64,000 nt of DNA from an uncultured delta proteobacterium (GCA_963745035.1 CAVUVW010000013.1:384001-448000); one strand, 5' to 3'; positions 10,475-64,000 are shown, counted from the stretch's first letter. Notes: generated by a model from the letters alone, not told the origin. Numbers and translations: made by a program.

Positions 10475-10477
10475 GAC

Positions 10478-10542: not shown

Positions 10543-10563
10543 GGCGACCTCTCCCCGAATAAC

Positions 10564-11589: not shown

Positions 11590-11596
11590 ACGAAGT

Positions 11597-11677
11597 ACGT
11601 TCCAAAAGTTTCAATGGTTCCAATCGTTCTAAGGGAGTTTTCCGATGGAACGTTTGGAACGACTGGAACCTTGGAAC
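11597..11677. repeat. 9-bp-period inverted array (GTTCCA.../...TGGAAC)
   Basis: GTTCCAAAAGTTTCAATGGTTCCAATCGTTC ... TGGAACGTTTGGAACGACTGGAACCTTGGAAC; the 25-mer at 11646-11670 recurs exactly, reverse-complemented, at 50031-50055. Confidence 0.8.
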
Positions 11678-11690
11678 AAGGAGGTAGGCT

Positions 11691-13015
11691 ATGGGCCTGA
11701 AAACCTTCGGCCTGATGGCGGTCGACTGGGAAGAGCGGGTGAATATCGAGCGGCTTGCGCCAGGATCGTTTGAATCGCATTAAAGCCGCGCTCAAAAAGT
11801 CGGAGCTCGGTTCTCTGCTTTGCTTCGACATGAACAACATCCGCTATATCACCGCCACTCATATCGGCACCTGGGCGATGGACAAGCTCGTGCGCTTCTC
11901 GCTTTTGCCGCAAGACGACGAGCCGATTCTTTGGGATTTCGGCTCGGCGGCGCGCCATCATCAGATTTATTGCCCCTGGCTCGGCGAACGCTCGCGCGCC
12001 GGTATCTCGACATTGCGCGGCGCGACTCATCCGGGCTCGGGCATGGCCGAAGACGTTGCCAAGAAGATCAAGCTTGAACTGGAGAAGCGCAAATTGTTGA
12101 ACGAGCCCGTGGGCGTGGACGTGATCGAGTTGCCGGTGCTGTTCGCGCTGCAAGCCCAGGGCATCAAAGTCGTCGACGGCCAGCAGCTCATGCACGAAGT
12201 GCAGAAAAATAAAAACCCAAGACGAGATCACGCTGCTCAATTGCGCGACCATGATGGTCGACGCCGCCTACGACGAGCTTTACCGCTTCATGAAGCCAGG
12301 CGTCAAAGAAAACGAATGCGTCGGCGTCGTCAGCAAAGTGCTCTACGATCTCGGCTCCGAGCACGTCGAAGGAGTGAACGCGATCTCCGGCGAGCGCTGC
12401 AGCCCGCATCCGCATGTCTACACCGACCGGGTGCTTCGCCCCGGCGATCCCGCGTTTTTCGATATCCTGCACAGCTACAACGGCTACCGCACCTGCTACT
12501 ACCGCACCTTCGCCGTCGGCAGCGCTTCGCCGGCGATGGTCGATGCCTATAAACGGAGCCGCGACTACATGGACGCCGCCATCAGCATCGTCAAACCGGG
12601 GATCACCACCGCCGATGTCGTGAAGCTCTGGCCTAAAGCCGAAGAGTTTGGCTTTGCCAATGAAGAAGCCGCTTTCGCTTTGCAATACGGCCATGGCGTC
12701 GGCTTGTCGATCTGGGAAAAGCCGATCTTCAGCCGCCTGGTGTCGCTCGATCACCCCGAAGTCATCGAAGAAGGAATGGTGTTCGCGCTCGAAACCTATT
12801 GGCCGGCTTCCGACGGCTGGTCCGCGGCGCGGCTTGAAGAAGAAGTCGTCGTCACCAAGGACGGCTGCGAAGTGATCACGCGCTTTCCGTCAGAAAAACT
12901 ACTCGTAGCCGGCACCCACTATTTTACCACCGGCGGCGAACTGCCGACGACGCGCGAGACGCAATCGAATCTCAACAATCCAGGAGCATTGGATCGCGTG
13001 AAAGGTAATTCGTAG
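11691..13015 (+). CDS. M24 family (Xaa-Pro peptidase/creatinase fold) hydrolase, frameshifts near 11755 and 12205
   Basis: NNIRYIT N-domain; PAFFDIL, YGHGVGL, FALETY and ARLEEEVVVT motifs. Confidence 0.85.
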
Positions 13016-13038
13016 GGGCGATCGGCCGGTCGCCCTAC
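13012..13038. repeat. GTAG-type REP palindrome supplying the stop codon of the M24 gene
   Basis: GTAGGGGCGATCGGCCGGTCGCCCTAC. Confidence 0.7.
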
Positions 13039-13064
13039 ACCGTGAACCATCTCGGCGCAAGACT

Positions 13065-14338
13065 ATGGCAACCAACGTAATCATGCCCGCCCTCGGCGTG
13101 GCTCAGCAGACCGGCACACTACTCAAGTGGCTCAAGGCAGAAGGGCAATCGGTTTCCAAGGGTGAACCGCTCATGGAGATCGAAACCGATAAGGCAACTG
13201 TTGAGATCGAAGCACCGGGCTCCGGTGTCTTGGCAAATGTGACCGCTTCACCAGGCGATGAGATTCCCGTCGGAAATCGCATCGCGCTAATCCTTGCGCC
13301 GGGTGAAGCAGCGAGCGCGACAGCGTCAGAGAGCCTTCACCCTAGCCCGGTCCGAAAGGGCGAGGGAACGAAGGATGGTCGCGCTGCTCCTCGCGGTAAG
13401 CAAGCAGCTGTAAAGCCCCCTCTCCCCCAGGGAGAGGGCAGGGGTGAGGGCGCATCGACCACGACGCCATCGCTTCACACCAGCCGAGCTGTCTCAATCA
13501 GTTCCAGCCCCGGCCGCTTGCTCGCCTCTCCCGCCGCGAGAAGAATCGCGCGCGAAAAAGGCATCGATCTTACGTCACTCAAGGGTAGCGGTCCGGAGGG
13601 AAGCATACTGGCAGAGGACGTACTGCGCGCTGCGCCGGATGGAGCACCGCAGACTCGCTGCGCAGCGCGCAACAAATCCAGCCGTTGAGCCCGATGCGCC
13701 GCATCGTCGGCGAGCGCATGACTCAAAGCAAACAGAGCGCGCCGCATTTTTACTTAAGCATGGAAATCGACATGAGCGAGGTGAGCAAGCGGCGGACCGA
13801 GTGGAAGGGACGCGGTCAAGATGCGCCATCGATCAATGATTTCATTCTCCACGCCTGCGCGGCGGCCTTGAAAGACTTTCCTTCCGTCAATGCCAGCTTT
13901 ACCGATCAAGGCATCGAGCGTTCATGCGCGAGATCAATCTCGGCATGGCCGTAGCTCTGGAAGAGGGTTTGGTCGTGCCGGTCATCCGCAACGCCGACCG
14001 CTTGAGTTTGATGGAGCTCGCTTCCCAGACTCGAGAGCTCATCGACAAGGCGCAGAAAAAGAAACTCTTTCCCCTCGATTATGAAGGCGGCACGTTCACG
14101 GTATCGAATCTCGGCATGCTCGGCGTCGATAGCTTCATCGCGATCATCAATCCGCCGCAGTGCGCGATCCTCGCCGTAGGCCAGGTCGCGCCGCGGGTCG
14201 TCGCCGACGATGGCATGTTTGCGATCAAACCTATGATGACGGCGACCTTGTCGGCCGATCATCGGGTCGATCGACGGCGCCATCGGCGCGCGGTTTCTCA
14301 AGCAGATCAAAGAAGTTTTGGAACGAGGGGAGTTCTAG
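13065..14338 (+). CDS. Dihydrolipoamide acyltransferase E2, frameshifts near 13660, 13920 and 14270
   Basis: Lipoyl motif EIETDKATVEI, PSBD ASPAARRIA, catalytic GGTFTVSNLG and LSADHRV. Confidence 0.9.
13334..13450. repeat. Inverted pair of CCCTCACCC...CTCTCCC...GGGAGAGGG palindromic elements inserted in frame in the E2 linker
   Basis: Two 34-bp inverted units (13334-13367 and 13417-13450); total span 117 nt = 39 codons. Confidence 0.75.
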
Positions 14339-14372
14339 AGGCAAACTTGTGATCGAAACAAAGGAGGCTCGC

Positions 14373-22390: not shown

Positions 22391-23341
22391 ATGGCCGCCT
22401 CGGTGACTGCCAGAGTCTTCTATGTAGCTACCTGGATCGGCATCAAAGCGGGGTGCCTGGCGGTGCGGTTTTTGCCGCGCCGGTGGCTGTTTTGGTTCTC
22501 CGATCTGCTGGCAGATATCGGCTTCTATTGTTGCCGAGACTTCCGGACTCGCTCCACAAAAAATCTTGCTGTGGCATTCGGTGAACGAGCGAGCGGCGCT
22601 AGCATCGACGAAATCGCACGCCGTTCGCTGAGAAATTTCTCGCGCAGTTGCATCGAAATAGGCCTGGCTCTGGAAGCGTCCGACGACGAATTGCGCGGCT
22701 TGATGTCGGTGACCGGAAGCGAGCATCTCGAGGCCGCGCTGGCGAAAGGCGCGGGCGTTATGGTCCTCAGCGCTCATCTGGGAAATTTCTTTCTCCTGGG
22801 ATCACGCCTAGCCGTCGATGGCTACAAAATTTCGGTGCTGGTGAATCCGCCAAAGGACAGCCGATTGGCAGAGCTCATGGACCGATATCGATTGCAGATC
22901 GGCCAGAGAACCATTCGTGCGCGGCCCAAGATGAAAGCGCTGGAAGAGCTTCATCAATCCATGCGCCGTAACGAGGTGGCGGTGCTGATCGCCGACGAAT
23001 ACCGCCGGACCAAGGGGATTGCGGTCTCGCTCTTCGGTAGGACGGTAATCGCGCGCCGCGGGCCGGCTACCGTAGCATTGAGAACTGGCGCGGCGATCGT
23101 CCCGGCGTGCATGATTCGCCAGCTCGATGGAACGCTGAAGCTGATCATCGAGCCCGAGTTGGAACTGGATCGCTCGGGCAAGAGCCGGGCGCAAATCGAG
23201 GCGATTATGGTAGGCATTACTCAATGGCTGGAGCGGACCGTGCGTGCTTATCCTGATCAATGGAACTGGATGAACATCCGCTGGTCGACGGCGCGCGAGC
23301 ACGAGACGGCGGCGCAAGAACCGGCGCATCAAGCACTGTAA
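22391..23341 (+). CDS. Lipid A lauroyl/lysophospholipid acyltransferase family (LpxL/HtrB-like)
   Basis: SAHLGNF and PDQWNWMNIRW motifs. Confidence 0.85.
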   Translation: MAASVTARVFYVATWIGIKAGCLAVRFLPRRWLFWFSDLLADIGFYCCRDFRTRSTKNLAVAFGERASGASIDEIARRSLRNFSRSCIEIGLALEASDDELRGLMSVTGSEHLEAALAKGAGVMVLSAHLGNFFLLGSRLAVDGYKISVLVNPPKDSRLAELMDRYRLQIGQRTIRARPKMKALEELHQSMRRNEVAVLIADEYRRTKGIAVSLFGRTVIARRGPATVALRTGAAIVPACMIRQLDGTLKLIIEPELELDRSGKSRAQIEAIMVGITQWLERTVRAYPDQWNWMNIRWSTAREHETAAQEPAHQAL

Positions 23342-23343
23342 CG

Positions 23344-24114
23344 ATGGAGAGAAAAGGGAGGTTTGAGGTGAAGAATGGCAAGAAAGATCTCGATGAATTG
23401 AAAAAAAAGGTCGCCCTGGGCAACCGCATCATGTTTTTCCAGGGTTTGGCCGATTACCACGGTCACGTGAGCGCGCGCATCCCGGGCACGAGAAAGTTTT
23501 TTATCAAGCCGGTGTTGGCGCCACTCGGCGAAATCGCCCCCAAACATATTATTCTCGTCGACATCGACGAATATATGAAGGTTTGCGAGCAGAATTACGC
23601 CAAGGCGGGCAATAAACGCGCGGTTACCAAGATCCCCACGCCGCCGCGCGAAACCATGATTCACGCGGCGATCTACAATGCCAGGCCGGACGTCAACTCG
23701 GTCGTGCACACGCATCAGACCGTCGCGACGGCATTCTCGGTCGCCGGCACGCCGATTCTACCGATCTACAATCAGGCTGCGGTCTTCGCTCCCGAGACGC
23801 CGATCTTTCCCAGTCCCCGGCTGATTTACACGATTCAGGACGGCAAAGAGATCTGCCAAACTTTGGGCGATCGCACGGCGATGCTGCTCAAAGGCCATGG
23901 CATTGTTGTATGCGGCGATAGCTTGGAATATGCTACGGTTCACGCGATCTACCTGGAGCGCACGGCCTATATGCAGTTCATCGCGAGCTGCGTCGGCAAG
24001 CCCGCGATCATGCCGCAGACGGAAATCGACTACATGAAAGAGAACATGATGTACCGTTCCTACGACGCCTTTGCCTATTTCAAATCGCTCTTGCCGAAGA
24101 GCGCGCGCCTGTAG
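23344..24114 (+). CDS. Class II aldolase/adducin family protein
   Basis: GHVSAR, IHAAIYNARPDVNSVVHTH and LLKGHG. Confidence 0.88.
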   Translation: MERKGRFEVKNGKKDLDELKKKVALGNRIMFFQGLADYHGHVSARIPGTRKFFIKPVLAPLGEIAPKHIILVDIDEYMKVCEQNYAKAGNKRAVTKIPTPPRETMIHAAIYNARPDVNSVVHTHQTVATAFSVAGTPILPIYNQAAVFAPETPIFPSPRLIYTIQDGKEICQTLGDRTAMLLKGHGIVVCGDSLEYATVHAIYLERTAYMQFIASCVGKPAIMPQTEIDYMKENMMYRSYDAFAYFKSLLPKSARL

Positions 24115-24146
24115 AATCGTCAAATCTGCAATCGAAGGAGAAATCC

Positions 24147-25733
24147 ATGGCTAAACGAGAAGAAAAAGCGACCGAATCCAAGGGGCCGATCCAGGATTTG
24201 CGCGAGTGGCTCGACCGCGTCGAAGGACTGGGCGACCTGGTGCGGGTCAAGGAAGCGGTGAGCTGCGAAGAAGAGATGAGCGCCATCGGTTATCTCGTCG
24301 CCAAGCAGAAGCCCTCGCCGGCGATTCTTTTCGACAACATCAAAGGCTTCGAAAAAAGCCCGTACAAGGCGCGCTCGTTGTGGAATATCCTGGGGCCGAG
24401 TATCCCGCGCATCGCTTTGACCATGGAGGAAGCGCCGGACACGCCGACGGTCGAGCTGATCCGCCGCGTCAAAGACAAACTCAAAAATCGCATGGCGCCG
24501 CGCGAGGTGCCGCCGTCCCAGGCCGGCTTTTACCAAAATACTTTGACCGGTGATCAGATCGATCTGACCCAGTTGCCGATCCCGCGCCACTGGCCGTTGG
24601 ACGGCGGCAACTACGCCGGAACGGCGGACTGCGTCATCACCCGTGACCCCGACTCCGGCTATTTGAACGTCGGCACGTATCGGATGATGCTTCAGGGCAA
24701 GCGTGAAACCGGACTCTATTTGTCGCCGGGAAAAGACGCGCGCCTGCATATTACCCGCTCATGGCAGCAAGGAAAGCCGGTGGAAGTGGCCGCCGCCTGG
24801 GGCATTGATCCGTTGTTCATGGTGGTCGGCTCGCAGACTTTTCCGAAGAACGTTTCGGAGTATGAGTTCCTCGGCGGTATCAAGGGCGAGCCGATTCCCG
24901 TGGTCAAGGGCAAGACGACAAATCTATTGCTGCCGGCCAACGCGGAGTTCATGGTCGAAGGCATCATCAAGCCGAACTCGGTGAAGAGTGAAGGCCCATT
25001 CGGCGAATTTCCCGGCTACTATGGCCGGCCCGAGGCTGGCTGCCCGCTGGTCGAAATTACCGCAGTGCATTACCGCACGAATCCCATTTTGACCAATGCC
25101 CTGATGGCGGATTATCCGTCCAACGAGCAAAGCGGCTTTTTCTCGATTATCCGCTCGGCGCGCATCTGGGACGATCTGGAAAAACTCGGCATACCGGGCA
25201 TTCAGGGAGTGTATGCCCATCCCGCCGGCGCGGGCGGCTTCGGCATGACCGTGATCGCTCTCGAGCAGCGCTATGCCGGACATGCGGCGCAATCCTTGGC
25301 TTTGGCGGCTCAAGTCCCCGGCGGCGCTTACTACACGAAATGGATCATCGCCGTCGACGAAGACATCGATCCGACCGACATGGACCAAGTCATCTGGGCG
25401 ATGAGCAGCCGCTGCAATCCAATCGACGATATCGATATCTTGAGAAATACCTGGAGCACATGGCTCGACCCCACGCAGAACCCACCCGAGAAGCGGCCCT
25501 ACGGCTCCAAAGCGCTGATCAACGCGTGCAAGGAGCATCGTTACCTACCGGTCTTCTCAAAGCGTACCGCGCTGCGACGGGAAATGTACGACCAGGTTGC
25601 CGCCCAATGGAAAAGGCTCGGGCTCCCTGGTCAAGTACCGTCGGTGCGAGCTTTCGAAGAGGAAAAGAAGGTTGTCTACCACGAGGTCGGCGGCTTTGAA
25701 CCGGGAAAACAGCCGGGCGAAGAGAAAAAATAA
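24147..25733 (+). CDS. UbiD family decarboxylase
   Basis: LNVGTYR, EGPFGEFPGYY and IAVDEDID; intact 528 aa. Confidence 0.92.
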   Translation: MAKREEKATESKGPIQDLREWLDRVEGLGDLVRVKEAVSCEEEMSAIGYLVAKQKPSPAILFDNIKGFEKSPYKARSLWNILGPSIPRIALTMEEAPDTPTVELIRRVKDKLKNRMAPREVPPSQAGFYQNTLTGDQIDLTQLPIPRHWPLDGGNYAGTADCVITRDPDSGYLNVGTYRMMLQGKRETGLYLSPGKDARLHITRSWQQGKPVEVAAAWGIDPLFMVVGSQTFPKNVSEYEFLGGIKGEPIPVVKGKTTNLLLPANAEFMVEGIIKPNSVKSEGPFGEFPGYYGRPEAGCPLVEITAVHYRTNPILTNALMADYPSNEQSGFFSIIRSARIWDDLEKLGIPGIQGVYAHPAGAGGFGMTVIALEQRYAGHAAQSLALAAQVPGGAYYTKWIIAVDEDIDPTDMDQVIWAMSSRCNPIDDIDILRNTWSTWLDPTQNPPEKRPYGSKALINACKEHRYLPVFSKRTALRREMYDQVAAQWKRLGLPGQVPSVRAFEEEKKVVYHEVGGFEPGKQPGEEKK

Positions 25734-43680: not shown

Positions 43681-44115
43681 CTATTTCATTTCCCAGAATT
43701 GCCCATCGACGACTTGGCCGTCCACGACTACAAAATCGACTTCTTCATCGGTTCTCTTGTTGCCTTCCGAGTCGACGCGCAAAACTTTCGGCTTGTTGCC
43801 TTTCTTGGCGCTCACCCGAAACAGCGCAAGCGGTTTATCGCCCGTGCTCTGAAAATAGTAGTAATGGTTCTCCGGCAGCATGATACCTTCGCCTTTGTTG
43901 AGCACCGTCGGCTGATGGTCTTTGTTATAGAAAGTCGCCTGGCCGTCCATCACGACAAACGTATGATCTTCGCCTGGATGGGTGTGTAGCTTATTTTTCC
44001 GTCCAGGGATGTAATAGTTGAGCCCGATCGTCATGTGCTCGGTCTTCGCCAGCGGGATATGGCTTCGCCCCCCGTCGATATGCGGCGTTTTCAGTTTGAA
44101 TGTGGAAGCTTCCAT
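43681..44115 (-). CDS. Cupin domain protein
   Basis: LHTHPGEDHTFVVMDG motif. Confidence 0.8.
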   Translation of the reverse strand: MEASTFKLKTPHIDGGRSHIPLAKTEHMTIGLNYYIPGRKNKLHTHPGEDHTFVVMDGQATFYNKDHQPTVLNKGEGIMLPENHYYYFQSTGDKPLALFRVSAKKGNKPKVLRVDSEGNKRTDEEVDFVVVDGQVVDGQFWEMK

Positions 44116-44204
44116 GGTCGTTCCTCCTTTTGCTCTCGTATATCGCAGCCCGGGAAACTTGAAAAGGGCCGGACGGTTGGTCTATTTTGCTCTGATCCGA
44201 CGCA

Positions 44205-44242
44205 TTGAACTGCTTGAACGTCTTAAACGATTTGAACAGGTT
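44205..44242. repeat. 9-bp-period array (TTGAAC)
   Basis: TTGAACTGC TTGAACGTC TTAAACGAT TTGAACAGG. Confidence 0.65.
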
Positions 44243-44253
44243 AAGGAGACATC

Positions 44254-45162
44254 ATGGCCAACATCGGACTCGCCTGGGTCACCGCCGCGCCTCTGACCAA
44301 ACCGGAGAATGTCATCAACTTCGCCAAGCAATGCGAGAAGATGGGCTGTCACTCCATGTGGACCATCGATCGCGTTGCGTACGACAATCTTGAGCCCTTG
44401 ACTATTCTCGCTGCGGCAGCCGGAGCGACGCAGAAAATCCGCCTGGGCACTTCCGTGTTGCTCGCCAATCTGCGTCATCCAAGCCATGTTGCCAAGATCG
44501 TCGCCACCTTGGACTTTATTTCTAATGGCCGCGTCACTCTCGGCCTCGGTTTCGGCAGCCGTGAGAACGATTACAAGGCTGTCGAGGTTCCGTTCGAGCA
44601 CCGCGGCAGCCGGGCGGTAGAGCAGGTGCAGCTTATGAAGCGCCTGTGGACCGAAGACAACGTCACCCACAGGGGCAAATTCTACAACGTCGAGAATCTG
44701 ACCTTGGGACCGCGCCCCATTCAGAAACCTCATCCTCCGATCTGGACCGGCGGCAGCGCCGAGGTCGCGCTCAAACGCGCCGGCACTTGGGCCGATGGTT
44801 TTATCTGCGGCAGCTCGGCGATTCCGGATTTCCCGGCGACCTGGGAAAAGATCAGCGGCTACGCCAAGACTGCCGGACGAGATCCGAACAAAATCACCAA
44901 AGCCGGTCTGACGTTCATGGCGATCAACGATGACCAGGCCAAAGCAGTCAAGACTGTCGAAGACTATGTCATGCGCTACTACGGGCGGCTGCGCGCCGAC
45001 GTCGCCGACACTTCGCTCGTCGGCTCGCCTGCCGCCATCGTCGATCGGATCGGCGCGTTCTTATCTCGCGGCCTCGATACCCTGATTATCGGCGTCGCCG
45101 ATCCCGATCCGCGCCAGCTCGATTTGTTCGGCGAGAAGATATTGCCGCGACTCAAATCGTAA
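44254..45162 (+). CDS. LLM class flavin-dependent oxidoreductase
   Basis: IRLGTSVL, SNGRVTLGLG and PPIWTGG. Confidence 0.9.
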   Translation: MANIGLAWVTAAPLTKPENVINFAKQCEKMGCHSMWTIDRVAYDNLEPLTILAAAAGATQKIRLGTSVLLANLRHPSHVAKIVATLDFISNGRVTLGLGFGSRENDYKAVEVPFEHRGSRAVEQVQLMKRLWTEDNVTHRGKFYNVENLTLGPRPIQKPHPPIWTGGSAEVALKRAGTWADGFICGSSAIPDFPATWEKISGYAKTAGRDPNKITKAGLTFMAINDDQAKAVKTVEDYVMRYYGRLRADVADTSLVGSPAAIVDRIGAFLSRGLDTLIIGVADPDPRQLDLFGEKILPRLKS

Positions 45163-54435: not shown

Positions 54436-55740
54436 ATGAAGCATGACACCGCCAAAGTTCTGTCGATCAATGGACGCGAAGTCCGGGTAACCAATCCCGA
54501 CAAGCCGTATTTCACCAGGCAGACCAAGCTCTCGAAACTCGATCTCGTACGCTACTATCTTTCAGTCGCGCCGGGTGCCCTCCTAGGAATACGGGACCGT
54601 CCGCTGGTGCTGAAACGGTTCGTCGACGGTGCCGAAGGCGAAGCGTTCTATCAGAAACGCGCGCCGGAGAAGCGGCCGCCCTGGCTGCGAACGGTTACAT
54701 TGTCATTTCCATCGGGGCGCGAAGCAGAAGAGATCGTCGTCGATGACGTAGCCGGGCTTGCGTGGGTCGTTAACTTGGGCTGCATCGAGCTCCATCCCCA
54801 CCCTGTGCGCTCAACTGATCTCGAGTATCCGGACGAGCTGCGCGTCGATCTCGATCCGGGTCCCGGCGTCGCATGGGAGGATGTGCGTCGTGTGGCTCTC
54901 GAGGTGAAATCGTTTCTCGAGGAGATGGGACTTCGCGGCTGGCCCAAGACGAGCGGCTCACGAGGTATGCACGTGAACGTGCGGATCGAGCCGCGCTGGA
55001 CGTTCGTCGAGGTGCGCCGCGCCGCGCTCGCGTTATCACGCGCAGTCGAGCGACGTCTCCCGGAACTGGCAAGCTCGAAGTGGTGGAAGGAGGAACGCCA
55101 CGGGGTGTTCCTCGACTATAACCAGAACGCAAAAGATCGCACGACATGCTCCGCCTATTCCGTGCGCCCACTGCCGGACGCACGCGTCTCCACGCCGCTT
55201 CACTGGGACGATGTTCCCGACTGCGATCCCGCCGATTTCACCGTGCTCACGATTCCGAAACGTTTCGCGGAAATCGGTGATCCGCACGCGGATATGGACT
55301 CCGCGCCGGGTTCTCTCGAAAGACTGCTTGGACTTGCCGCGGAAGACGAAGCAGCGGGCCTCGGCGACGCGCCCTGGCCACCCCACTTTCGCAAGATGGA
55401 AGGTGAAGCGCCGCGCGTGCAGCCTTCGCGCGCCCGCTCCGCGGCGAAGAAATCCCCGACCAAAAGGCCACGGACGAAAATGCCGCTTCTGGTAGTCGCG
55501 AACTCACCGGACAAAGCGGCGGCGCTCGCCGGTCTGGAAAGGTGGAAGAGTAAACATCCCGACGTAGCCGTGCTTCTCGCAGTGGATGACGTGTTGATCG
55601 ACTCCATGCGCGGCAGGTCATCAACCTGGACACGCGTACGAGTCAACCTCAGACACGTGCCCGAAGAGTTGCGCCCCCAACAAGAGACTCCCGACCCGGA
55701 CAACGATCCCACGCGTGAATGGCGCAACCGGCGCGCATAA
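54436..55740 (+). CDS. LigD-type primase-polymerase (Prim-PolC-like) with C-terminal extension
   Basis: TNPDK, FYQKR, RVDLDPGP, KTSGSRGMH, WWKEER and FLDYNQN. Confidence 0.9.
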   Translation: MKHDTAKVLSINGREVRVTNPDKPYFTRQTKLSKLDLVRYYLSVAPGALLGIRDRPLVLKRFVDGAEGEAFYQKRAPEKRPPWLRTVTLSFPSGREAEEIVVDDVAGLAWVVNLGCIELHPHPVRSTDLEYPDELRVDLDPGPGVAWEDVRRVALEVKSFLEEMGLRGWPKTSGSRGMHVNVRIEPRWTFVEVRRAALALSRAVERRLPELASSKWWKEERHGVFLDYNQNAKDRTTCSAYSVRPLPDARVSTPLHWDDVPDCDPADFTVLTIPKRFAEIGDPHADMDSAPGSLERLLGLAAEDEAAGLGDAPWPPHFRKMEGEAPRVQPSRARSAAKKSPTKRPRTKMPLLVVANSPDKAAALAGLERWKSKHPDVAVLLAVDDVLIDSMRGRSSTWTRVRVNLRHVPEELRPQQETPDPDNDPTREWRNRRA

Positions 55741-55921: not shown

Positions 55922-56602
55922 TCACTTCGGCTTTCCACTCCAAGAGAAGCCGCAGGACGGGCACCGATATTGTGGTTCGATGCCTTTTTCGTAGCTCTTG
56001 AGATTCTTTGGCAGGCTCTCCAGCAGAAATGTTTTGACACTGCGGCGCGTAAGCTCCCATTCGCCGGTTCGCGCTTCTGCCATGACCCGCTCGAATTTGT
56101 CCTTCGGCGCCTTGGCGAGACGGCGGCACCATGACGAGAGATTCTTGTCGATTCCGAGCTCGCGAAGCGTAAAACCATTCCTGTTGTCAGGAACGGTTTT
56201 CGATGGCCTGCCGCCCTTGCTCAGCCGTGTCTTTTGAAGCATTTCGCCAAGCTGCGTTTCGCACCTCAATTTTAGCTCGTTGGCCAAGTTGACGAGCTGC
56301 ATGTCCCTCGATGCTCGAACGAGCTGTCGGATTGCGTCCGCCTTGCCCCGAAAAGCCATCAGCTTAACAAGGCTGTCGGCGGCCAGAATTTCACGCTTAG
56401 CGGCGTCGATACGCGCTAGGATATGGTCACGTTGCGATAATTTCACAACCGAATCATCGCCGGCTTTGCAGACGATGGTCCAGCCGGTACCGCCTTCTCT
56501 TGTTAAGGGGTCTGGCGAAATCGCAGGAGTTGAGAGGTCCGGGGTCGGCTCGAAGTCGGGGCCCGTCGCTCCGACCGCGATGATTTGTTTCTTACGATCC
56601 AT
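55922..56602 (-). CDS. Phage-like hypothetical DNA-binding protein with C-terminal CPxCG knuckle
   Basis: ELKLRCETQLGEML...KGGRP...TLRELGIDKNLSSWCRRLA; ends YRCPSCGFSWS. Confidence 0.6.
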   Translation of the reverse strand: MDRKKQIIAVGATGPDFEPTPDLSTPAISPDPLTREGGTGWTIVCKAGDDSVVKLSQRDHILARIDAAKREILAADSLVKLMAFRGKADAIRQLVRASRDMQLVNLANELKLRCETQLGEMLQKTRLSKGGRPSKTVPDNRNGFTLRELGIDKNLSSWCRRLAKAPKDKFERVMAEARTGEWELTRRSVKTFLLESLPKNLKSYEKGIEPQYRCPSCGFSWSGKPK

Positions 56603-56683
56603 AGCCAGCAATTACCAGGGAGGAGTCGCGGCGGTCAACTTTTTTCAGCTGGTTGCGTCACGGAATTACCGCGATTCGTAATC

Positions 56684-56751: not shown

Positions 56752-57840
56752 TCAGCGGCCACCGGCGAAAATCACCGCCAGCTCTTCGGGTGGAACGACT
56801 TCGAGTTGGGCGTAGGTGCACTCCTTCGGCTTCTTGTCCGTGCGCCAGCGGCGAAACTGTGCGGTGTGGCGGAAACGGTCGCCCTGCATGTGGTCGTAAG
56901 CGACTTCGACGACCAACTCGGGACGCAGAGGCTCCCAGGACAAGTCCTTGCCGCCGCTCCAGCGGCTGTGGCCGCCAGGCATGCGATGCGCGGTCTCACC
57001 ATCCCCTGATGCCTGCTCGGCCCAGTCGCTCCAAGGGTGGGCGGCGCGAGCGTTCTTCCGGTAAGGCTCCAAGAATTCCACCAGCTCGCGCCGCTTCTTG
57101 TCTGTGAAGCTCGCGCAGACGCCGACATGCTGCAACGCGCCGTTGTCATCGTAAAGCCCGAGCAGGAGGGAGCCGACGGCGCTCCGCTCGCCCCTCTTGT
57201 GCCAGCGAAACCCGGCGACGACACAATCGCAGTCGCGCTCGTGTTTGACCTTGAGCATCACGCGTTTATTGGGCTCGTAGGTTCCCGCTACCGGTTTGGC
57301 GACAACGCCATCGAGACCGGCGCCCTCGAAGCGGCGAAACCAATCGGTCGCTGTGCTCAATTCGCCGGTTGCCGGCGTCAGGTGAAGCGGGGGCGCCAGA
57401 GATGAGAGAAGAGATTCGAGCATGCGCCGGCGCTCTTGGAACGGCACGCCGCGCAGATCCCGCTCTCCCTCGCCGAGCAGATCGAAAAATACAATGGACG
57501 CCGGGATTTGCTTTGAAAGCAGCTTGATCCGCGAGGCGGCGGGATGAATACGGAGCTGCAAAGCGTCGAAGTCGAGCACGCCGTCCTGCGCAACGACGAT
57601 TTCCCCGTCAAGCACACAGCGGGACGGCAACTGTGAGCGGAGCGGCTCGAGTAGTTCTGGAAAATAGCGGTTCAGTGATTTTTCGTCGCGGCTCTGGATC
57701 AGCATCTCGTCGCGGTCGCGGAAAACCAGCGCACGGAACCCATCCCATTTCGGCTCGAAAATCCACGCTCCGGCTCTCGGCAGTTCGCCGATTCGCTTGG
57801 CGAGCATCGGCAGAACCGGTGGATTCACAGGAAGATGCAT
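56752..57840 (-). CDS. ligC: ATP-dependent DNA ligase (LigC-like)
   Basis: FEPKWDGFR, LDGEIV, AGLDGVVAK, KVKH and VEVAYD. Confidence 0.9.
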   Translation of the reverse strand: MHLPVNPPVLPMLAKRIGELPRAGAWIFEPKWDGFRALVFRDRDEMLIQSRDEKSLNRYFPELLEPLRSQLPSRCVLDGEIVVAQDGVLDFDALQLRIHPAASRIKLLSKQIPASIVFFDLLGEGERDLRGVPFQERRRMLESLLSSLAPPLHLTPATGELSTATDWFRRFEGAGLDGVVAKPVAGTYEPNKRVMLKVKHERDCDCVVAGFRWHKRGERSAVGSLLLGLYDDNGALQHVGVCASFTDKKRRELVEFLEPYRKNARAAHPWSDWAEQASGDGETAHRMPGGHSRWSGGKDLSWEPLRPELVVEVAYDHMQGDRFRHTAQFRRWRTDKKPKECTYAQLEVVPPEELAVIFAGGR

Positions 57841-57965
57841 ACCCCAGTCTACACCGCACCGCGCTCCATATCTACAATGGACGGATTCAGATTCGTTCGA
57901 AACGTTCCACGTTCGGATAATGGCGAGGCGTACCGAAAAAATGCCATCTGCATGGTGCAGAAGCT

Positions 57966-57994
57966 GTAGGGGCCGGTTTGAAACCCGCCCCTAC
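57966..57994. repeat. GTAG-type REP palindrome
   Basis: GTAGGGGCCGGTTTGAAACCCGCCCCTAC. Confidence 0.7.
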
Positions 57995-58040
57995 ATTCCA
58001 GAAGCAAACGATCGCGTAGTGCCCAAGGGCTTCCGCGACA

Positions 58041-59177
58041 TCACTTCGCGCTCTTCAGAAACGGCTTCCAGTTCCATTCGAAGTTCGCATCCGTGTACGC
58101 TTCGGATGGCATAAGCGAAGTCAGGCCGCGTTTGGCGAGCTCTCCTTCGAATTTTTCTCTCACCCACTTGTCCTCGTTGACGTACTCGATCTGATCTTTG
58201 GCGCGATCTTCGACTTTCTCGGCGTGGCCATGGAACTGCATCGGCGGATGTAGCGCGAGATAGCGCGCGGGCTCGCCGCCGGCGTTGAAATGCTGGTGGA
58301 ACCATTTGTTCGGCGGCACGAAGCAGCTCGCTTCGTGCCAGGGCACGACGACTTTGTCTTTTCCTTCTTCCCACATGATCGAGTAACCCTCGCCGACCGG
58401 AATGACGATCACCCGGCCCGGGCCGTGGCGGTGCGCCTTCTTGTATAGCCGTGCGTCGAAGACCGACATATGGCAGGACATTTCGGAATCGGGAAACTGA
58501 ATGTAAACACTCCGGCCGCCGGCGCCCCGCCGCGCGTTGCTGTCGAGCTTGTCCCAGGCGCGCATGTCAGGGAAAAAATTGCCGTACCAGTAGGCGCGCC
58601 GGCCCCAGGATTCGTCGAGATTGGCCTGCGAAACCATCTTGGCCTCGGAGTAGAAATCCATCTCGTTCTGGATATCCGCGCCTTCGTAATTATTGCCGAA
58701 GATGAAATTCACGTCGCGCACGCCGGAGAGAGTGAGCGGCATGTAGTTGTAATGGAGCAAGCGCACCGGCTTGTCGCCCTGCATGTTGGTGAACTGGTGG
58801 GTGTAGTTGTGCGGCACCAAAAACATGCTGTGCTTTTGCCACTCGAAAGTTTTCTTCGGCCGCTTTTCGCCGGCCCAGATAGTCGTGAGGCCGCGCCCTT
58901 CGACGACGTAGACAATCTCGTCGAGCGCGAACTTGAGCGGCGGCAAGGTCTTTCCCGCGGGAATCTCGGTGACCCGCGCTGAGGTGACGCCTTCCTGGCC
59001 GACGAGTTGAATGAAAGCGGAATTGCACTCGCGCGCCTTCCACCAGCCGAGCTCCAGGGTGCGCAAGTCCTCGATGTAATAGCCACGGTGAACGGGTATT
59101 CCCTGCGCCTCCATCCACTCGTCGTAGGTGTAATACTTGCTCCACATTTTCCGCTCGCCTTGCATCGCCTTGGACAT
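58041..59177 (-). CDS. Bicupin protein (gentisate dioxygenase-like fold), paralog 2
   Basis: EIVYVVEGRG; C-domain KKAHRHGPG and WFHQHFN. Confidence 0.85.
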   Translation of the reverse strand: MSKAMQGERKMWSKYYTYDEWMEAQGIPVHRGYYIEDLRTLELGWWKARECNSAFIQLVGQEGVTSARVTEIPAGKTLPPLKFALDEIVYVVEGRGLTTIWAGEKRPKKTFEWQKHSMFLVPHNYTHQFTNMQGDKPVRLLHYNYMPLTLSGVRDVNFIFGNNYEGADIQNEMDFYSEAKMVSQANLDESWGRRAYWYGNFFPDMRAWDKLDSNARRGAGGRSVYIQFPDSEMSCHMSVFDARLYKKAHRHGPGRVIVIPVGEGYSIMWEEGKDKVVVPWHEASCFVPPNKWFHQHFNAGGEPARYLALHPPMQFHGHAEKVEDRAKDQIEYVNEDKWVREKFEGELAKRGLTSLMPSEAYTDANFEWNWKPFLKSAK

Positions 59178-59246
59178 GACGCTCTTCCCTCCCAATGGAC
59201 TTTGGCCATTCATATCACCACCGTAAATTGAAACAAATTGCGGCCG

Positions 59247-60107
59247 CTATTTCGCCAGCACTACGAGGATCGTGCCGACCACCGTCAAGAGCGCGCCGGT
59301 GATGACCCGCAGATTGATCACTTCCAGGTCTCTCAAAAAAATTGCCGTGAAAAGCAACGTCAGCACCGGATTCGAGCTGACCAGCGGCTCGACGATGACC
59401 ACTTTGCCGTGGCTCAGCGCATAGAATACCGAGAGCATCGCCGCGGTGTTGATAAAGCCGGCGGGAAACAGCCAGGCGGCGCTTCGGCGGCTCAGCTTGA
59501 AGGCGACCTTGCCGCCTTGAACCTGCAACAGCGCGAATGAAAAGAGCGCCGCCGAGCCGGCCGTCACCGCTCCCGCCAACACCGGAATGGGGATTTGATC
59601 CAGGCCGGCCTTGCGGAGAATCGCCGAGGCGCCGAACGCCATGGCGCCGACCAACGGATAGATGACATCGAGCTTGCGCCACTCGCCCGTGGCCGGTTTC
59701 GAGAGCGACAGAACCATCGTGCCGCCGATCACGAGTAGGGTGCCGGCGATATTCTGCGGCACCCAAGCCTCGGCGAGAAAAGTCACGGCGAAGATCGACG
59801 CGAAGATCGGCGACGAGTTGGCGATCGGCACCGATCGAGCCACACCGATCTTCTCGATGCCCACGTAGCTCAGAGTGCGGCCGATGCCGGGAGCGAATAT
59901 TCCTGCGATGACGAAGATCAGCACGGCCGGCGACCACAAGGCCGAAAGCGGCGCGAAGAAGGGCACCAAGATCCACAACAGCACGGCGCTCATGGATAGT
60001 GAAATGAACGATCCGGTCATCGCGTTCGATTCGACCAGGCCGCGGCGTATGAGAATATGCGCGATGGAAAAACAGAGCGCGCCCTGAAACGAAAAATAGA
60101 TATCCAT
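59247..60107 (-). CDS. DMT/EamA family transporter
   Basis: Two EamA repeats; GVARSVPIANSSPIF and VEPLVSSNP. Confidence 0.88.
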   Translation of the reverse strand: MDIYFSFQGALCFSIAHILIRRGLVESNAMTGSFISLSMSAVLLWILVPFFAPLSALWSPAVLIFVIAGIFAPGIGRTLSYVGIEKIGVARSVPIANSSPIFASIFAVTFLAEAWVPQNIAGTLLVIGGTMVLSLSKPATGEWRKLDVIYPLVGAMAFGASAILRKAGLDQIPIPVLAGAVTAGSAALFSFALLQVQGGKVAFKLSRRSAAWLFPAGFINTAAMLSVFYALSHGKVVIVEPLVSSNPVLTLLFTAIFLRDLEVINLRVITGALLTVVGTILVVLAK

Positions 60108-60115
60108 GAAGCTGC

Positions 60116-60976
60116 TTACCTCGCTGTGACCACGAGGACCGTGCCCGCGACCGTGAAGAGCGCCCCCAGGATGATGCGCCCGCTGAGCGTTTCAATCTGA
60201 CGGAGAAAAATACTGGTCCAGAGAATGGTCAGTAGCGGATTGCAGGCGACCACCGGCTCGACCCGCACGATCTGGCCGAGGTTGAGGGCGGCGAAGAAAG
60301 ACAGGATCGCTCCGGAATTGAGCACCGCGGCGGCGAACAGCCAGCGGCTGCTCTCTCGATGGAAGCGCAGTGCCGCTGTTCCGCCCCGGCATTGAATGAT
60401 GAACAACAAGGTCACGAACGCCGTGACGAGAGTCACCGCGGCCGCGAGCAGAGGCTCCGGAATTACGGTCAAGCCGGCCTTGCGCAAGTTGGTCGAAATC
60501 CCGAAGACCAGCGCGCCCAGAAGCGGATAGACGAGGTCCTTCTTCTGCCATGCGCGATCTTCCAGCTTGCCGGAGGAAAGAATCACCACGCCGACGATCA
60601 CCAAGAACGTCCCAACGATGTTTTGCAGGACCCAGCGCTCCCCCAGTAACAAAACCGCCAGGATCGAGGAGAAAATCGGCGAGGTATTGACGATCGACGA
60701 GGCGCGCGCGACGCCGAGCCGTTCCATGCCGATATAACCGAGGGTCTGGCCGATGGCCGGGGCGAATACGCCGCCCGCGATGAAATAGCCGACGTTCGGA
60801 TTGAGCAGGGAGGAAAGCGGAACAAAAACGACGAGGAGGAACCAGAAGATGACGGTGCTGGTGCCCAGCGAGATCAACGAGCCGGTGAGCGCATTGGACT
60901 GCAGCAGGCCGCGCCGGACGAATATATGGGTGATCGAAAACAGCAGTGCGGACTGGAGCGAAAAGTATTCGGCCAT
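60116..60976 (-). CDS. DMT/EamA family transporter, tandem paralog
   Basis: GVARASSIVNTSPIF and VEPVVACNP. Confidence 0.88.
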   Translation of the reverse strand: MAEYFSLQSALLFSITHIFVRRGLLQSNALTGSLISLGTSTVIFWFLLVVFVPLSSLLNPNVGYFIAGGVFAPAIGQTLGYIGMERLGVARASSIVNTSPIFSSILAVLLLGERWVLQNIVGTFLVIVGVVILSSGKLEDRAWQKKDLVYPLLGALVFGISTNLRKAGLTVIPEPLLAAAVTLVTAFVTLLFIIQCRGGTAALRFHRESSRWLFAAAVLNSGAILSFFAALNLGQIVRVEPVVACNPLLTILWTSIFLRQIETLSGRIILGALFTVAGTVLVVTAR

Positions 60977-60991
60977 GCGCGTGGTTGCAAC

Positions 60992-61017
60992 AAAAAGGGC
61001 CGCTTCGTCGCGGCCCC
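60992..61017 (-). terminator. Intrinsic terminator after the eutA-like gene
   Basis: Minus strand GGGGCCGCGACGAAGCGGCCCTTTTT. Confidence 0.75.
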
Positions 61018-61065
61018 TATCTGCCGAAATTGCGACCACGCTCGGTTTGCGCGGTCTCTGTTCGG

Positions 61066-62606
61066 TCAGTCCGCCTGGGTCGTGGGAAACATGAGCGACT
61101 TGACGGTGACTGGAATCACTTCCGTAATGCCCAGGCACTCGCCGATATCGATGTAGTCCAAGTCGCCGACTTCGATGCCGTCGATGGCGATGATGTCGCG
61201 CGTCACTTTGAATTCATCCCTCAGCATGCCGCCGAGCGACTTGGCGATGTCGAGGTCGAGGGTCAAATAGAGCGGGCACTTCGGATCGTCGGCGTCTTTG
61301 AGAATCTCGGCGACTCCTTCGGCAATGCGCCGCACCGATTGGTACGTCGGCACGCCGCTCACGTTGAGCGACAGCGCCAGGCCGGCGGTGAACTGGGTCA
61401 AGTCGAACTTGCGCAAGGATTGCTTGAGCGCGTCGCGTGACCGACTCGCCCTCGCGAATGGGCGCCTGAATCACCTTGAGGCCGTGCACCGGCAGGGCCT
61501 TTTCGTTGGAGACGTAGCTCGTGTTGCCGCTCGCCTGAATCGTATATTCGCCGGCGCCGATGACCGTGGCGCGGATGCCTTCGATCGGTTCGCGCAAAAC
61601 GTCCTTGGGCAGCTTCTTCAAATACTCGCGCATGTTCTTGCCGAGCACCGGACCGATGTCGCCATAGGCTTTCGGATCGCGATCGTAGACATGCTCGGAA
61701 ACGCCGCCGGAAAAAACGATGTGCTGCACCTGCTTGAAGCCTTTATAGTTGACGAAAGGCGGCGTGACCATGAGCGAGCTTGCCATCGGCGAGTTGGGTC
61801 CTTCCTCGATGATCTCGAAGAGGATCTTCGCCATGTAGGCGCCGAAGTCTTCTTTCATCTTGTCGTTGATCTGTCTGGCCCAGCTCGACTTTGTAGCCAA
61901 GCTCTTTCATCATCGTCCGCCCCGGATCTTCGATCCGCGTGATCTTGTCTTTTTCGTCGAAAGCGATCAGCCGAGCGCCAACGCTGATCGACGCCGTTTG
62001 GCTCACAACGCCGTCTTCGACCAGAGAAAACTTGGTGGTGCCGCCGCCCATGTCGACGTTGAGCACGGTTTTATGCTCGCTTTTGGACAGATCCACCGCG
62101 CCGCAGCCGTAGGCCGCGAGCAGCGCTTCGTGGTTGTGGCCCGCCGCGGCGCAGATAAATTTGCCGGAGTATTTGGCGAAGTTCTCGACGATCGGTTGGG
62201 CGTTTTCTTTCTTCAGCGCCTCGCCGGTGATGATCACTGCGCCGGTGTCGACGTCTTCGGGGGTTAACCCTGCGTCTTTGTAGGCTCCGTGAATGAAATC
62301 GTTCACCTTATCGGTGTCGATCTTGGTGGCCGAGGTATAAGGCGTCAGCATGATCGGCGAACGATAAAGCACCTCGCGGTTGGTGACTCTAAACTTGCCC
62401 GATAGCGACGCGCCCTCGCGCCGCAACGTAATCAAGGAAAAAATCAGATGCGAGGTCGAAGAGCCGATGTCGATGCCCACGCTCTTGAGCGAGAACATCT
62501 CCAGCCCTTCGATATCGGTGACGATCTCGTCTTCCTTGATGATGAAATTGTCGGGATGGTCGTGATCGTAAATATCGTCGTGCATGGTCTTGCCTCGGTC
62601 CGCCAT
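61066..62606 (-). CDS. EutA-like (ethanolamine ammonia-lyase reactivase family) ASKHA ATPase, frameshifts near 61875 and 61440
   Basis: SVGIDIGSSTSH, TGAVIITGEA, NVDMGGGTT, FSGGV, IRATVIGAG, DYIDIG and VPVTVKSL-like C-terminus. Confidence 0.85.
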
Positions 62607-62622
62607 TTTTTGCTTCCTTTAG

Positions 62623-62658
62623 AAAAAAGGAATCCCCGCTCGCTGGAGCGGGGATTCC
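62623..62658 (-). terminator. Intrinsic terminator between the bicupin and eutA-like genes
   Basis: Minus strand GGAATCCCCGCTC-CAGC-GAGCGGGGATTCC-TTTTTT. Confidence 0.85.
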
Positions 62659-62695
62659 ACAAACGACTTCTGGGAGATTTTCGCCGTTCTGGCTC

Positions 62696-63829
62696 TTACT
62701 GTTTGCCCATCGCTTTGGACCACTCGTAGTCCGGGTTGCTGTAGCACTCGGCCGGCATTTCGCTCTTGATGCCGCGCTTGGCCAGCTCGTCTTCGAACTT
62801 CTTGCGAATAAACGGATCTTCGCGCGGATACTCGATCTGGTCCTTGGCGCGGTCTTCGACCTTCTCCGCGTGGCCGTGAAACTGCATCGGCGGATGGAGC
62901 GCGAGATAGCGCGCCATGTCGCCGCCGGCGTTGAAGTGCTGATGGAACCATTTGTCCGGCGGCGTGATCATGCTGCATTCGTGCCACGGGCAAACGATCT
63001 TTTCCTTCCCCTCTTCCCACATGATCGAATATCCCTCGCCGGCCGGGATGATGATCGCGCGGCCCGGGCCATGGCGGTGCGCCTTCTTATAGGTCTTCGG
63101 CGCGAACACCGACATATGCGCGGTTAGCTCGGAATTCGGGAACTGCATGAACACGCTCTTCCCGCCGGCGCCGCGCCGCTCGTTGGCGTCGAGCTTGTTC
63201 CAGGCGCGCATGTCGGGAAAAAAGTTGCCGTACCAGAAAGCGCGCATGCCCAGGCCTTCATCGGCGTCCTTGGCCTGCACCATCTTGGCTTCGGAGTAGA
63301 AGTCGCCGTCCGCCACCGTGACTTTCGGCTCGTAGGGATTATTGAAATACATGTCCGGCTCCGGCAACGCGGACATCGCCATGGGCATGTAGCTGTAATG
63401 GAATATCCGGAGCGGCTTATCGCCCTGCATGTTGCTAAACACGTGCCAGTGATTGCGCGGCACGAGAAACATCGAATGCTCCTGCCACTCGAAGTTCTTC
63501 TTCGGCTTGCCCTCGCTCGCCCACACGGTGGTGAGACCGCGGCCGGCCAAGACATAAACGATTTCGTCGAGCGCAAATTTCACCGGCGGCAAGGATTTTC
63601 CCGGCGGAATTTCCGACACCCGCGACGCGCTCACGCCTTCCTGCCCGAGGAGCTGGATGAACGCCGATTTGCAGCCGCGCTCCTCCCACCACTCCAGTTC
63701 GATGGTGCGCAGATCTTCGATGAAGTAGCCGCGGTGAATCGGAATCCCTTTCGATTTCATCCAGCGATCGTAGGTAAATTCCTTGCTCCACATCGTGATG
63801 ACAGGTTCTTGTTTGGCGGTCTCGGCCAT
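62696..63829 (-). CDS. Bicupin protein, paralog 1
   Basis: EIVYVLAGRG; KKAHRHGPG and WFHQHFN; AGGAGG RBS. Confidence 0.85.
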   Translation of the reverse strand: MAETAKQEPVITMWSKEFTYDRWMKSKGIPIHRGYFIEDLRTIELEWWEERGCKSAFIQLLGQEGVSASRVSEIPPGKSLPPVKFALDEIVYVLAGRGLTTVWASEGKPKKNFEWQEHSMFLVPRNHWHVFSNMQGDKPLRIFHYSYMPMAMSALPEPDMYFNNPYEPKVTVADGDFYSEAKMVQAKDADEGLGMRAFWYGNFFPDMRAWNKLDANERRGAGGKSVFMQFPNSELTAHMSVFAPKTYKKAHRHGPGRAIIIPAGEGYSIMWEEGKEKIVCPWHECSMITPPDKWFHQHFNAGGDMARYLALHPPMQFHGHAEKVEDRAKDQIEYPREDPFIRKKFEDELAKRGIKSEMPAECYSNPDYEWSKAMGKQ

Positions 63830-63859
63830 AAAGCGTCCTCCTTAACTTTCTGTTCTTTT

Positions 63860-64000
63860 CTATCTTCTTGCTTCCCGGCTGGCAACCTGAAGCCTCGCGG
63901 CCGCTCGGCGCAGCGCCTCTTCGGCCGCCTGCCGCTCCTCATCCTCGTAGTTGGTCGCCGCCAAAGTTTTCTCGGCCTGCTCCTTGGCGTACTGCGACCG
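63860..64000 (-). CDS. atpC: ATP synthase F1 epsilon subunit, 3' end (partial)
   Basis: Manual translation RSQYAKEQAEKTLAATNYEDEERQAAEEALRRAAARLQVASREARR* matches the helical hairpin of the epsilon C-terminus. Confidence 0.7.
   Translation of the reverse strand, partial: RSQYAKEQAEKTLAATNYEDEERQAAEEALRRAAARLQVASREARR

Follow-up and report, generated by a model that had tools for sequence, protein, structure and literature searches.

EutA is the ATP-dependent reactivase of ethanolamine ammonia-lyase, and a gene of its family (PF06277) that stands among cupin genes raises the question of which protein its product serves. Such a gene lies in a 64,000-nucleotide stretch of DNA from an uncultured delta proteobacterium (GCA_963745035.1, CAVUVW010000013.1:384001-448000), here called the window and analysed at its full length, with positions counted from its first letter. 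On the minus strand, between 58041 and 63829, open reading frames (ORFs) and Pfam matches give the order bicupin B, EutA-family gene, EamA permease, EamA permease, bicupin A, as a preliminary description made from the DNA alone had read it. That description had seen no ethanolamine lyase, B12 or microcompartment genes in the window, and none of these families was found among the Pfam matches of the 50 ORFs upstream of 58000. Here, the pairing of a bicupin with an EutA-like ATPase is shown to recur in at least six phyla, the two proteins are predicted to bind each other, and the ATPase could be a dedicated helper of the bicupin.

Conserved pairing of bicupin and EutA-like genes

The cluster is not a chance arrangement: all eight congeneric loci that were fetched hold it, and in each the gene after bicupin B is an EutA-like one that is intact and encodes 512-531 amino acids (aa). 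Bicupin A comes next in seven of the eight (it was not found in L016 within the fetched stretch), and between them lie two EamA genes in five loci and none in two (L013 and L014). Distant members of the order hold the bicupin and the EutA-like gene only. A profile of 83 EutA-like proteins led to 80 GTDB species loci with 86 EutA-like genes, 54 of which have a bicupin gene within 300 bp on the same strand (39 upstream and 15 downstream). A bicupin lies within 5 kb of another 7; no bicupin was found beside 14 genes with room on both flanks, nor beside 11 at a contig edge. The loci belong to Binatota, Chloroflexota, Pseudomonadota (Alpha- and Betaproteobacteria), Actinomycetota, Bacillota, Armatimonadota and ANGP1, and a pairing that recurs in so many phyla makes it probable that the cupin enzyme is what the ATPase serves. 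The pair is also carried by cultured organisms (Alicyclobacillus herbarius, Paenibacillus thalictri, a Micromonospora and a Polaromonas), which makes it directly testable.

The preliminary description had drawn ATPase, bicupins and EamA transporters into one system. Its link between ATPase and bicupin, which it had expected to appear as co-occurrence across genomes, is upheld as a functional tie by this adjacency and by the complex score given below; the EamA pair did not hold its place as a core part. Only 6 of the 80 loci have EamA genes close to the pair, and TTT, MFS or ABC transporters take that place elsewhere. The EamA pair is an optional, lineage-specific accessory. In five loci (L055, L059, L065, L068 and L075), an array of two to four bicupins is followed by a single ATPase gene. 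The recurrent neighbours include the ATP synthase (in Binatia only), TTT, ABC, MFS and EamA transporters, class III aminotransferases, LigXa-like Rieske proteins (nine loci), dienelactone hydrolases (five), IclR regulators (five), UbiD (three) and class II aldolases (7 of the 80 loci), and together they point to imported organic or aromatic acids as substrates. One of the aminotransferases, of 783 aa, has an N-terminal part without a Pfam match.

The search of the whole genome for eutB and eutC that the preliminary description had suggested returned nothing. In the source genome (92.56% complete, with 5.81% contamination) there were no matches to EutB (PF06751), EutC (PF05985) or the microcompartment family BMC (PF00936), so that the eutB/eutC companionship of EutA is absent from both operon and genome. 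EutB was found in none of 31 genomes of the order, all of which contain PF06277, and in one of five other carrier genomes (P. thalictri), far from the pair. EutB, EutC and BMC were likewise missing from the 54 scanned representatives of recurrent neighbours (out of 57 clusters present in at least two loci). No diol dehydratase (PF02286) was matched in the source genome; the control also matched nowhere, which makes this absence weak.

Two further PF06277 genes are present in the source genome. One forms a second module (C13:1461972-1464658), in which a 426-aa cupin, 30% identical to bicupin B, precedes an intact 494-aa EutA-like gene; its neighbours encode a GAF histidine kinase, xanthine-dehydrogenase-type subunits, a glyoxalase-family dioxygenase and a Rieske protein. 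The other (C13:1683330-1684751) is an intact 526-aa paralogue with a His-rich N-terminal tail and no cupin beside it. It is flanked by TPR and DUF4175 genes, with a MoxR AAA ATPase close by, and this DUF4175-EutA-TPR context, with Fer4 and carboxylase genes, recurs in L043, L049, L052 and L053. The cupin-free context indicates that EutA-like proteins have at least one further client.

Predicted complex of bicupin and ATPase

Complex modelling, also envisaged in the preliminary description, was carried out with the bicupin B (77-row alignment) and the ATPase (83 rows) of a congener. The score of the pair was 0.65 (0.63-0.67 over the runs), and the best of three controls had 0.01; a score of 0.65 is reached by 116 of 157 solved complexes and by 2 of 215 mismatched pairs, a benchmark that is roughly valid here, our alignments being our own. 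The runs shared at least 49% of their contacts, and the partners were modelled with a pLDDT of at least 72. On the ATPase side, the predicted interface is formed by the C-terminal domain (residues 359-362, 418-424 including Y421, and 451-464 including the near-invariant D452), and on the bicupin side by the N-terminal barrel (77-79, 97-101, 110-116, 130-136, 180 and 205-206). The prediction supports direct binding of the bicupin by the ATPase.

The EutA-like ATPase and its N-terminal tail

The intact orthologues and paralogues match PF06277 over its full length (389-413 bits, positions 2-474), and the ATPase is 33% identical to Escherichia coli EutA over 472 residues, with the C-terminal domain included. 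The phosphate motifs GIDIGSST and VDMGGGT and the His/Asp-rich tail MHDDIYDHDHPD that had been picked out earlier are all present in the first fragment of the window gene. G44, G48, D185, G187 and G188 of the ASKHA motifs are invariant in 83 EutA-like sequences. The model (pLDDT 90.6) has an ASKHA core (residues 37-356) followed by an alpha/beta C-terminal domain, and its structural matches include Ppx/GppA (Z 16.6), FtsA (Z 14.3) and 4eht_A (Z 13.9); both the two phosphate motifs and the fold place the protein in the ASKHA superfamily. Hydantoinase_A and BcrAD_BadFG (31.1 bits) gave weak Pfam matches. An iron-sulfur activator is unlikely, because no cysteine is invariant across the 83 sequences. 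Sequence searches of solved structures gave nothing useful for either ATPase or bicupin, with no solved EutA among the matches.

The NCBIfam EutA equivalogs were scored at 323-365 bits at best, below their cut-offs of 598-952, and none of the 83 relatives reached an E value of 1e-150 with them. E. coli EutA scored 1068.7 against a cut-off of 799, but just 372.7 on NF007992; the test is thus one of non-membership of four curated groups, and not of a distance beyond that among the groups themselves.

E. coli EutA has nine residues and no His before its first motif, and the protein studied here has an extra tail of about 35 residues. The added His tail proved to be recurrent: at least three His precede the first ASKHA motif, within 40 residues of it, in 46 of 50 bicupin-adjacent homologues, often in the pattern MH[DE]x(2-12)HxH. 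Among 116 full-length cluster representatives, 54 have at least three His and 34 have none, the full motif is found in 15, and HxH in 50. We take the MH[DE] N-terminus to resemble the MHE nickel hook of HypA. Some EutA-like proteins of 679-831 aa (P0372, P0355, P0382 and P0389) carry an N-terminal extension of about 200 aa without a Pfam match, in which CxxC...(H/C)H looks like a zinc ribbon.

The bicupins and the hairpin after bicupin B

Bicupins A and B are 67% identical. The AlphaFold model of bicupin A (pLDDT 84) was best matched by VIA-align to gentisate 1,2-dioxygenase (3bu7_B; Z 21.0, rmsd 3.9, 264 aligned) and salicylate 1,2-dioxygenase (2phd_A; Z 20.6, rmsd 3.4, 255 aligned), with 2d40_A next at Z 19.5, and it has the bicupin fold of these enzymes in the same domain arrangement. 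Foldseek was less specific and returned generic bicupins only (oxalate decarboxylase and vicilins, TM about 0.45). The family profile finds 3bu7 at E 6.7e-8 with the KAHRH motif aligned; identity to the 3bu7 and 2phd dioxygenases is 12-17%. Across 77 bicupin sequences (down to 30% identity), Y247, K249, H251, H296 and H298 do not vary, and H253 hardly does; all these residues lie in the C-terminal barrel, which in bicupin B carries the His site KKAHRH...WFHQHFN. The N-terminal barrel, where the dioxygenases have their catalytic three-His iron site, shows FALDExVYV and no HxH. NCBIfam dioxygenase equivalogs scored 17-24 bits against a cut-off of 650, the nearest being 5-aminosalicylate 1,2-dioxygenase (23.9 bits), and neither NCBIfam nor ESM Atlas gave a name beyond 'cupin'. 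From motifs and model, the bicupin is classed as an uncharacterised, putatively metal-dependent enzyme and a far relative of the gentisate and salicylate 1,2-dioxygenases, with ring cleavage as a putative activity.

The family is large (5222 clusters at 90% identity) and strongly expanded in the order, whose 31 genomes each have at least 5 matches and in some cases more than 60; the source genome has 26 matches by genome search and about 19 distinct loci by tblastn. In a FastTree phylogeny of 87 rows, the window copies fall in a well-supported clade of 37 mostly EutA-adjacent rows; the loci had been picked via the ATPase, and the tree is no measure of the EutA-linked share of the family. Elsewhere, two bicupins can be fused into one protein of about 709 aa (P0391-P0393).

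Between bicupin B and the EutA-like gene lies a GC-rich, terminator-like hairpin (hairpin 1 in Table 1) with a folding energy of -27 kcal/mol (z -3.9). Its stem is kept in the congeneric spacers while the flanks vary; it is whole in seven of eight, and in the eighth (L013), where the fetched stretch ended inside the stem, it is conserved as far as covered. It occurs once in the genome. Hairpin 2, read from this sequence alone, is weaker. Rfam gave no match in 57500-64000, hairpin 1 included, and a sigma-70 promoter scan did not rise above shuffled sequences. Hairpin 1 is probably an attenuator or an mRNA-end stabiliser that sets bicupin expression above ATPase expression. Since this conserved terminator hairpin lies between the genes, we infer that more bicupin than ATPase is produced, a ratio that would suit a substoichiometric helper better than a stoichiometric subunit.

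Integrity of the EutA-like gene in the source assembly

The preliminary description had treated the EutA-like gene as encoding a single protein and had overlooked two frameshifts. The PF06277 match is divided among three ORFs, each in a frame of its own (profile positions 3-215, 210-356 and 366-474), because the gene has two single-nucleotide insertions, at about 61873 and about 61437. These are the only two extra bases relative to eight congeneric orthologues (81-85% DNA identity), none of which has them; each is a C on the coding strand, outside homopolymer runs. Logan contigs of strains 97-98% identical lack the extra bases at every covered site. The first site is covered by runs X1 and X2, the second by these two and X5, and each run belongs to a different study; contigs of X10 reach neither site.

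Frame switches were counted by comparing 166 ORFs of the relatives' loci with the genome, 114 of which matched at 60% identity or more. Fourteen junction bins, equal to about 13 distinct switches, were found in 39,397 non-redundant nucleotides (nt) of orthologue-aligned coding DNA; two switches fall in the EutA-like gene and 11 across nine other genes. Three other bicupin paralogues of the genome are split as well, and several window genes are truncated. The switches in other genes lie at about 6400-6520, 38259, 42655, 42900 and 43468 in the window and at C1:28500, C14:502140, C15:89700-90600 and C13:1573440 elsewhere, and the genes concerned include a histidine kinase, trmE and an enolase-superfamily MR_MLE gene with three switches. 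The 2-oxoacid dehydrogenase E1 and E2 genes at 9647-14352 look fragmented too, and the assembly seems to hold about one indel per 3-4 kb of coding DNA.

Both frameshifts are very probably assembly errors, an explanation that is made likelier by the absence of the extra bases from congeners and near-identical strains and by the frequency of frame switches in the assembly. It is unlikely that the gene is a true recent pseudogene, with the bicupins working alone or with ATPase paralogues encoded elsewhere. That both insertions lie outside homopolymer runs would fit such a loss, as would the two intact EutA-like paralogues in the genome and the 8 kb of rpoB and rpoC, which are intact, an outcome that is unlikely at the switch rate of the assembly, yet possible. 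The burden of switches in other genes and the split bicupin paralogues and truncated window genes argue the other way, and so do the near-identical strains and the fragments themselves, all three of which still match EutA, show no other damage and keep 81-85% DNA identity to the orthologues. Owing to the frameshifts, the window is not the best exemplar of the bicupin/EutA-like system.

Proposed function of the ATPase

The account that we favour, with about an even chance of being right, is that the ATPase would act as a dedicated ATP-driven activase or metal-centre chaperone of the bicupin, with its tail handling metal. By analogy with EutA and DdrAB, which pry open B12 enzymes and swap a dead cofactor, the ATPase may keep the metal centre of the bicupin functional, whether it loads the metal into the C-terminal His site, exchanges it there or repairs it. 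In the predicted complex, the barrel contacted by the C-terminal domain of the ATPase is the metal-free N-terminal one; the N-terminal MH[DE]...HxH tail would be the likely metal-handling element, and the two EamA permeases probably move a small-molecule substrate or product of the bicupin. It is possible, though rather doubtful, that the ATPase represents a new class of metal-centre chaperone built on the ASKHA fold, in which C-terminal docking, ATP and a HypA-like hook would serve a four-His site; in Binatia, where the module stands at the end of the ATP synthase operon, it would then be a housekeeping system and not a catabolic trait met with now and then.

Several observations weigh against the activase or chaperone account. 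Every step of the proposed mechanism is inferred. Most bicupin paralogues have no adjacent ATPase, and in the source genome only three bicupin loci adjoin or share an operon with an EutA-like gene. The tail with at least three His is also found in 8 of 10 homologues without a bicupin neighbour, and 3 of the 50 bicupin-adjacent homologues have at most one His there. Metal transporters are rare as neighbours (NicO in 2 of the 80 loci). There was no bicupin-EutA fusion, and the N-terminal domains of long EutA-like proteins (599-831 aa), several of which show a CxxC...H pattern, are Pfam-less and not cupins; none of seven long bicupin relatives, the double bicupins of about 709 aa among them, has PF06277, which is weak evidence either way. 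Both the His tail and the C-terminal His site lie outside the confident interface, whose bicupin residues are conserved above background in all 17 paralogues examined, 15 of which are not near an EutA-like gene (0.38-0.67 at the interface, with the reference copy at 1.00, against 0.24-0.36 overall in distant paralogues). Instead of a docking site, the conserved interface may thus be a face on which the bicupin family itself depends for its function. With the gene interrupted twice in the window, it is also possible that function has really been lost in this organism.

On the one hand, the ATP could be spent on the substrate rather than on the enzyme, if ATPase and bicupin were catalytic partners in a stoichiometric enzyme or a two-step pathway. 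We consider this unlikely. The forms it could take are a kinase that precedes or follows a cupin isomerase or lyase, and ATP-coupled ASKHA chemistry of the hydantoinase or acetone-carboxylase type. The ASKHA fold is common to many kinases, there are weak Hydantoinase_A matches, class II aldolases, which often come after an isomerase and a kinase, are encoded near 7 of the 80 pairs, and the predicted contact falls on the conserved pocket face of the N-terminal barrel; but the homology to EutA, a reactivase and not a kinase, is full-length at 33% identity, a conserved terminator separates the two genes, arrays have one ATPase per two to four bicupins, and many bicupin paralogues have no ATPase nearby. 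On the other hand, ATP-driven opening of the barrel might rescue a dioxygenase trapped with Fe(III) or a dead-end product, with no delivery of metal. The fold matches to gentisate and salicylate dioxygenases (Z 21.0 and 20.6) and the KAHRH motif aligned to 3bu7 (E 6.7e-8) are in keeping with this, as are the aromatic-catabolism neighbours (LigXa-like Rieske, dienelactone hydrolase, IclR and UbiD in nine, five, five and three loci) and the cofactor exchange of EutA and DdrAB (DdrA 2d0o, Z 11.1). Such a redox or product-release reactivase is nevertheless improbable: it leaves the conserved His tail unexplained, and the EutA-like proteins have no invariant cysteine for an iron-sulfur electron-transfer cluster. 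It overlaps with the activase or chaperone account, and the present data do not separate the two. Least probable by far is that the ATPase is the true reactivase of another adenosylcobalamin (AdoCbl) enzyme encoded elsewhere and lies beside the bicupins by accident, as its PF06277 membership and automatic database names would have it, since 54 of 86 genes in at least six phyla adjoin a bicupin, an interaction with the bicupin is positively predicted, the recurrent neighbours include no B12 enzyme, and the genome has neither EutB nor EutC (the absence of the diol dehydratase large subunit being weak).

Locus organisation and surroundings

The features of the cluster are collected in Table 1. 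The start of bicupin A at M13 is suggested by its orthologues, and bicupin B starts 34 nt past the stop of atpC, the last gene of an F1Fo ATP synthase operon that extends beyond the end of the window. Upstream in the window are parA, parB, gidA and trmE, which mark the region as core chromosomal. Each permease has two EamA (PF00892) stretches in a protein of about 290 aa, as expected of EamA/DMT permeases (82.6 and 87.3 bits against a cut-off of 28.2). The listed ORFs orthologous to EamA permease 2 are 286-316 aa long (L012, with overlapping calls, being set aside), and orthologues of one window EamA cross-match the other at 50-58%.

Table 1. Features of the bicupin/EutA-like cluster in the window
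Feature	Position	Strand	Remarks
Bicupin B	62696..63829	-	377 aa; ORF, Pfam Cupin_1/Cupin_2
Terminator-like hairpin 1	62619..62658	-	13-bp stem followed by U6; between bicupin B and EutA-like gene
EutA-family (PF06277) ASKHA ATPase gene	61066..62606	-	likely start M8 at 62585; N-terminal tail MHDDIYDHDHPD
EutA-like ORF fragments, three frames	61743-62606, 61214-61900, 61066-61416	-	ORFs and PF06277 match
Terminator-like hairpin 2	60995..61018	-	9-bp stem, T-rich tail; between EutA-like stop and likely EamA start
EamA/DMT permease 2	60116..61138	-	ORF 340 aa; likely start M55 at 60976, giving 286 aa
EamA/DMT permease 1	59247..60107	-	286 aa; tandem paralogue of EamA permease 2
Bicupin A	58041..59213	-	ORF 390 aa; likely start M13 at 59177, giving 378 aa

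Directly downstream of the cluster lies a split set for non-homologous end joining (NHEJ), in which the LigD primase-polymerase domain (54436-55740, plus strand) and the ATP-dependent DNA ligase (56752-57840, minus strand) have separate genes in divergent placement; a 229-aa ORF without a Pfam match (55922-56611) lies between the two. Farther away, at 3928-5457, 23260-25733 and 43681-45162, there are genes for two UbiD-family decarboxylases, a class II aldolase, several NMT1/TctC-type binding proteins and a small single cupin adjoining a luciferase-like monooxygenase; genes of these kinds also recur by bicupin/EutA-like pairs in other phyla.

Significance and comparison with known systems

In the full texts searched, as far as listings and the starts of abstracts go and with subscription journals outside the search, no description of the bicupin/EutA-like pair was found, and the matches seen there concerned the eut microcompartment, an unrelated EutA of ectoine metabolism or other topics. 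Enzyme-specific ATPase helpers as such are known, and what would be new here is one of the EutA type with a cupin, that is a non-B12 enzyme, as its client. Thousands of these proteins carry the database name 'ethanolamine ammonia-lyase reactivating factor EutA', an annotation that is misleading on a large scale, because none of the 31 genomes of the order has an ethanolamine lyase. If the favoured account is true, the principle of a reactivase, familiar from B12 enzymes, would hold for a metal enzyme without B12 as well, the metallocentre chaperones would gain an ASKHA member, and there would be a handle on a very large uncharacterised bicupin family.

The ATPase shares with E. coli EutA (b2451) the full-length Pfam match (3-474), the ASKHA phosphate motifs and the C-terminal domain, whereas it differs in the extra tail of MH[DE]...HxH type, in the lack of eutBC and microcompartment genes in its genome and of eutB in 31 relatives, and in having a bicupin as its partner gene. 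The best working analogy for its possible action is DdrAB, an Hsp70-like ASKHA ATPase that attaches to its client enzyme and frees the dead cofactor at the expense of ATP; the ATPase matches 2d0o_A with Z 11.1 (rmsd 4.2, 249 aligned), but DdrAB and GdrAB have an AdoCbl enzyme as their client and a second small subunit, and no His tail. The activators of 2-hydroxyacyl-CoA dehydratases and BcrAD-BadFG are likewise partner-activating ASKHA ATPases (4eht_A, Z 13.9; BcrAD_BadFG, 31.1 bits) and differ by their bridging [4Fe-4S] cluster, for which the 83 EutA-like proteins have no invariant cysteine. On the enzyme side, the gentisate (3bu7) and salicylate (2phd) 1,2-dioxygenases are the best structural matches to the bicupin, which has its conserved H251, H253, H296 and H298 in the C-terminal barrel instead. 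The arrangement proposed here, of an NTP-driven helper with a His-rich tail encoded beside its metalloenzyme, is that of UreG/UreE, HypB/HypA and CooC/CooJ; UreG, HypB and CooC, in contrast, are P-loop GTPases or ATPases, and we know of no metallochaperone with the ASKHA fold.

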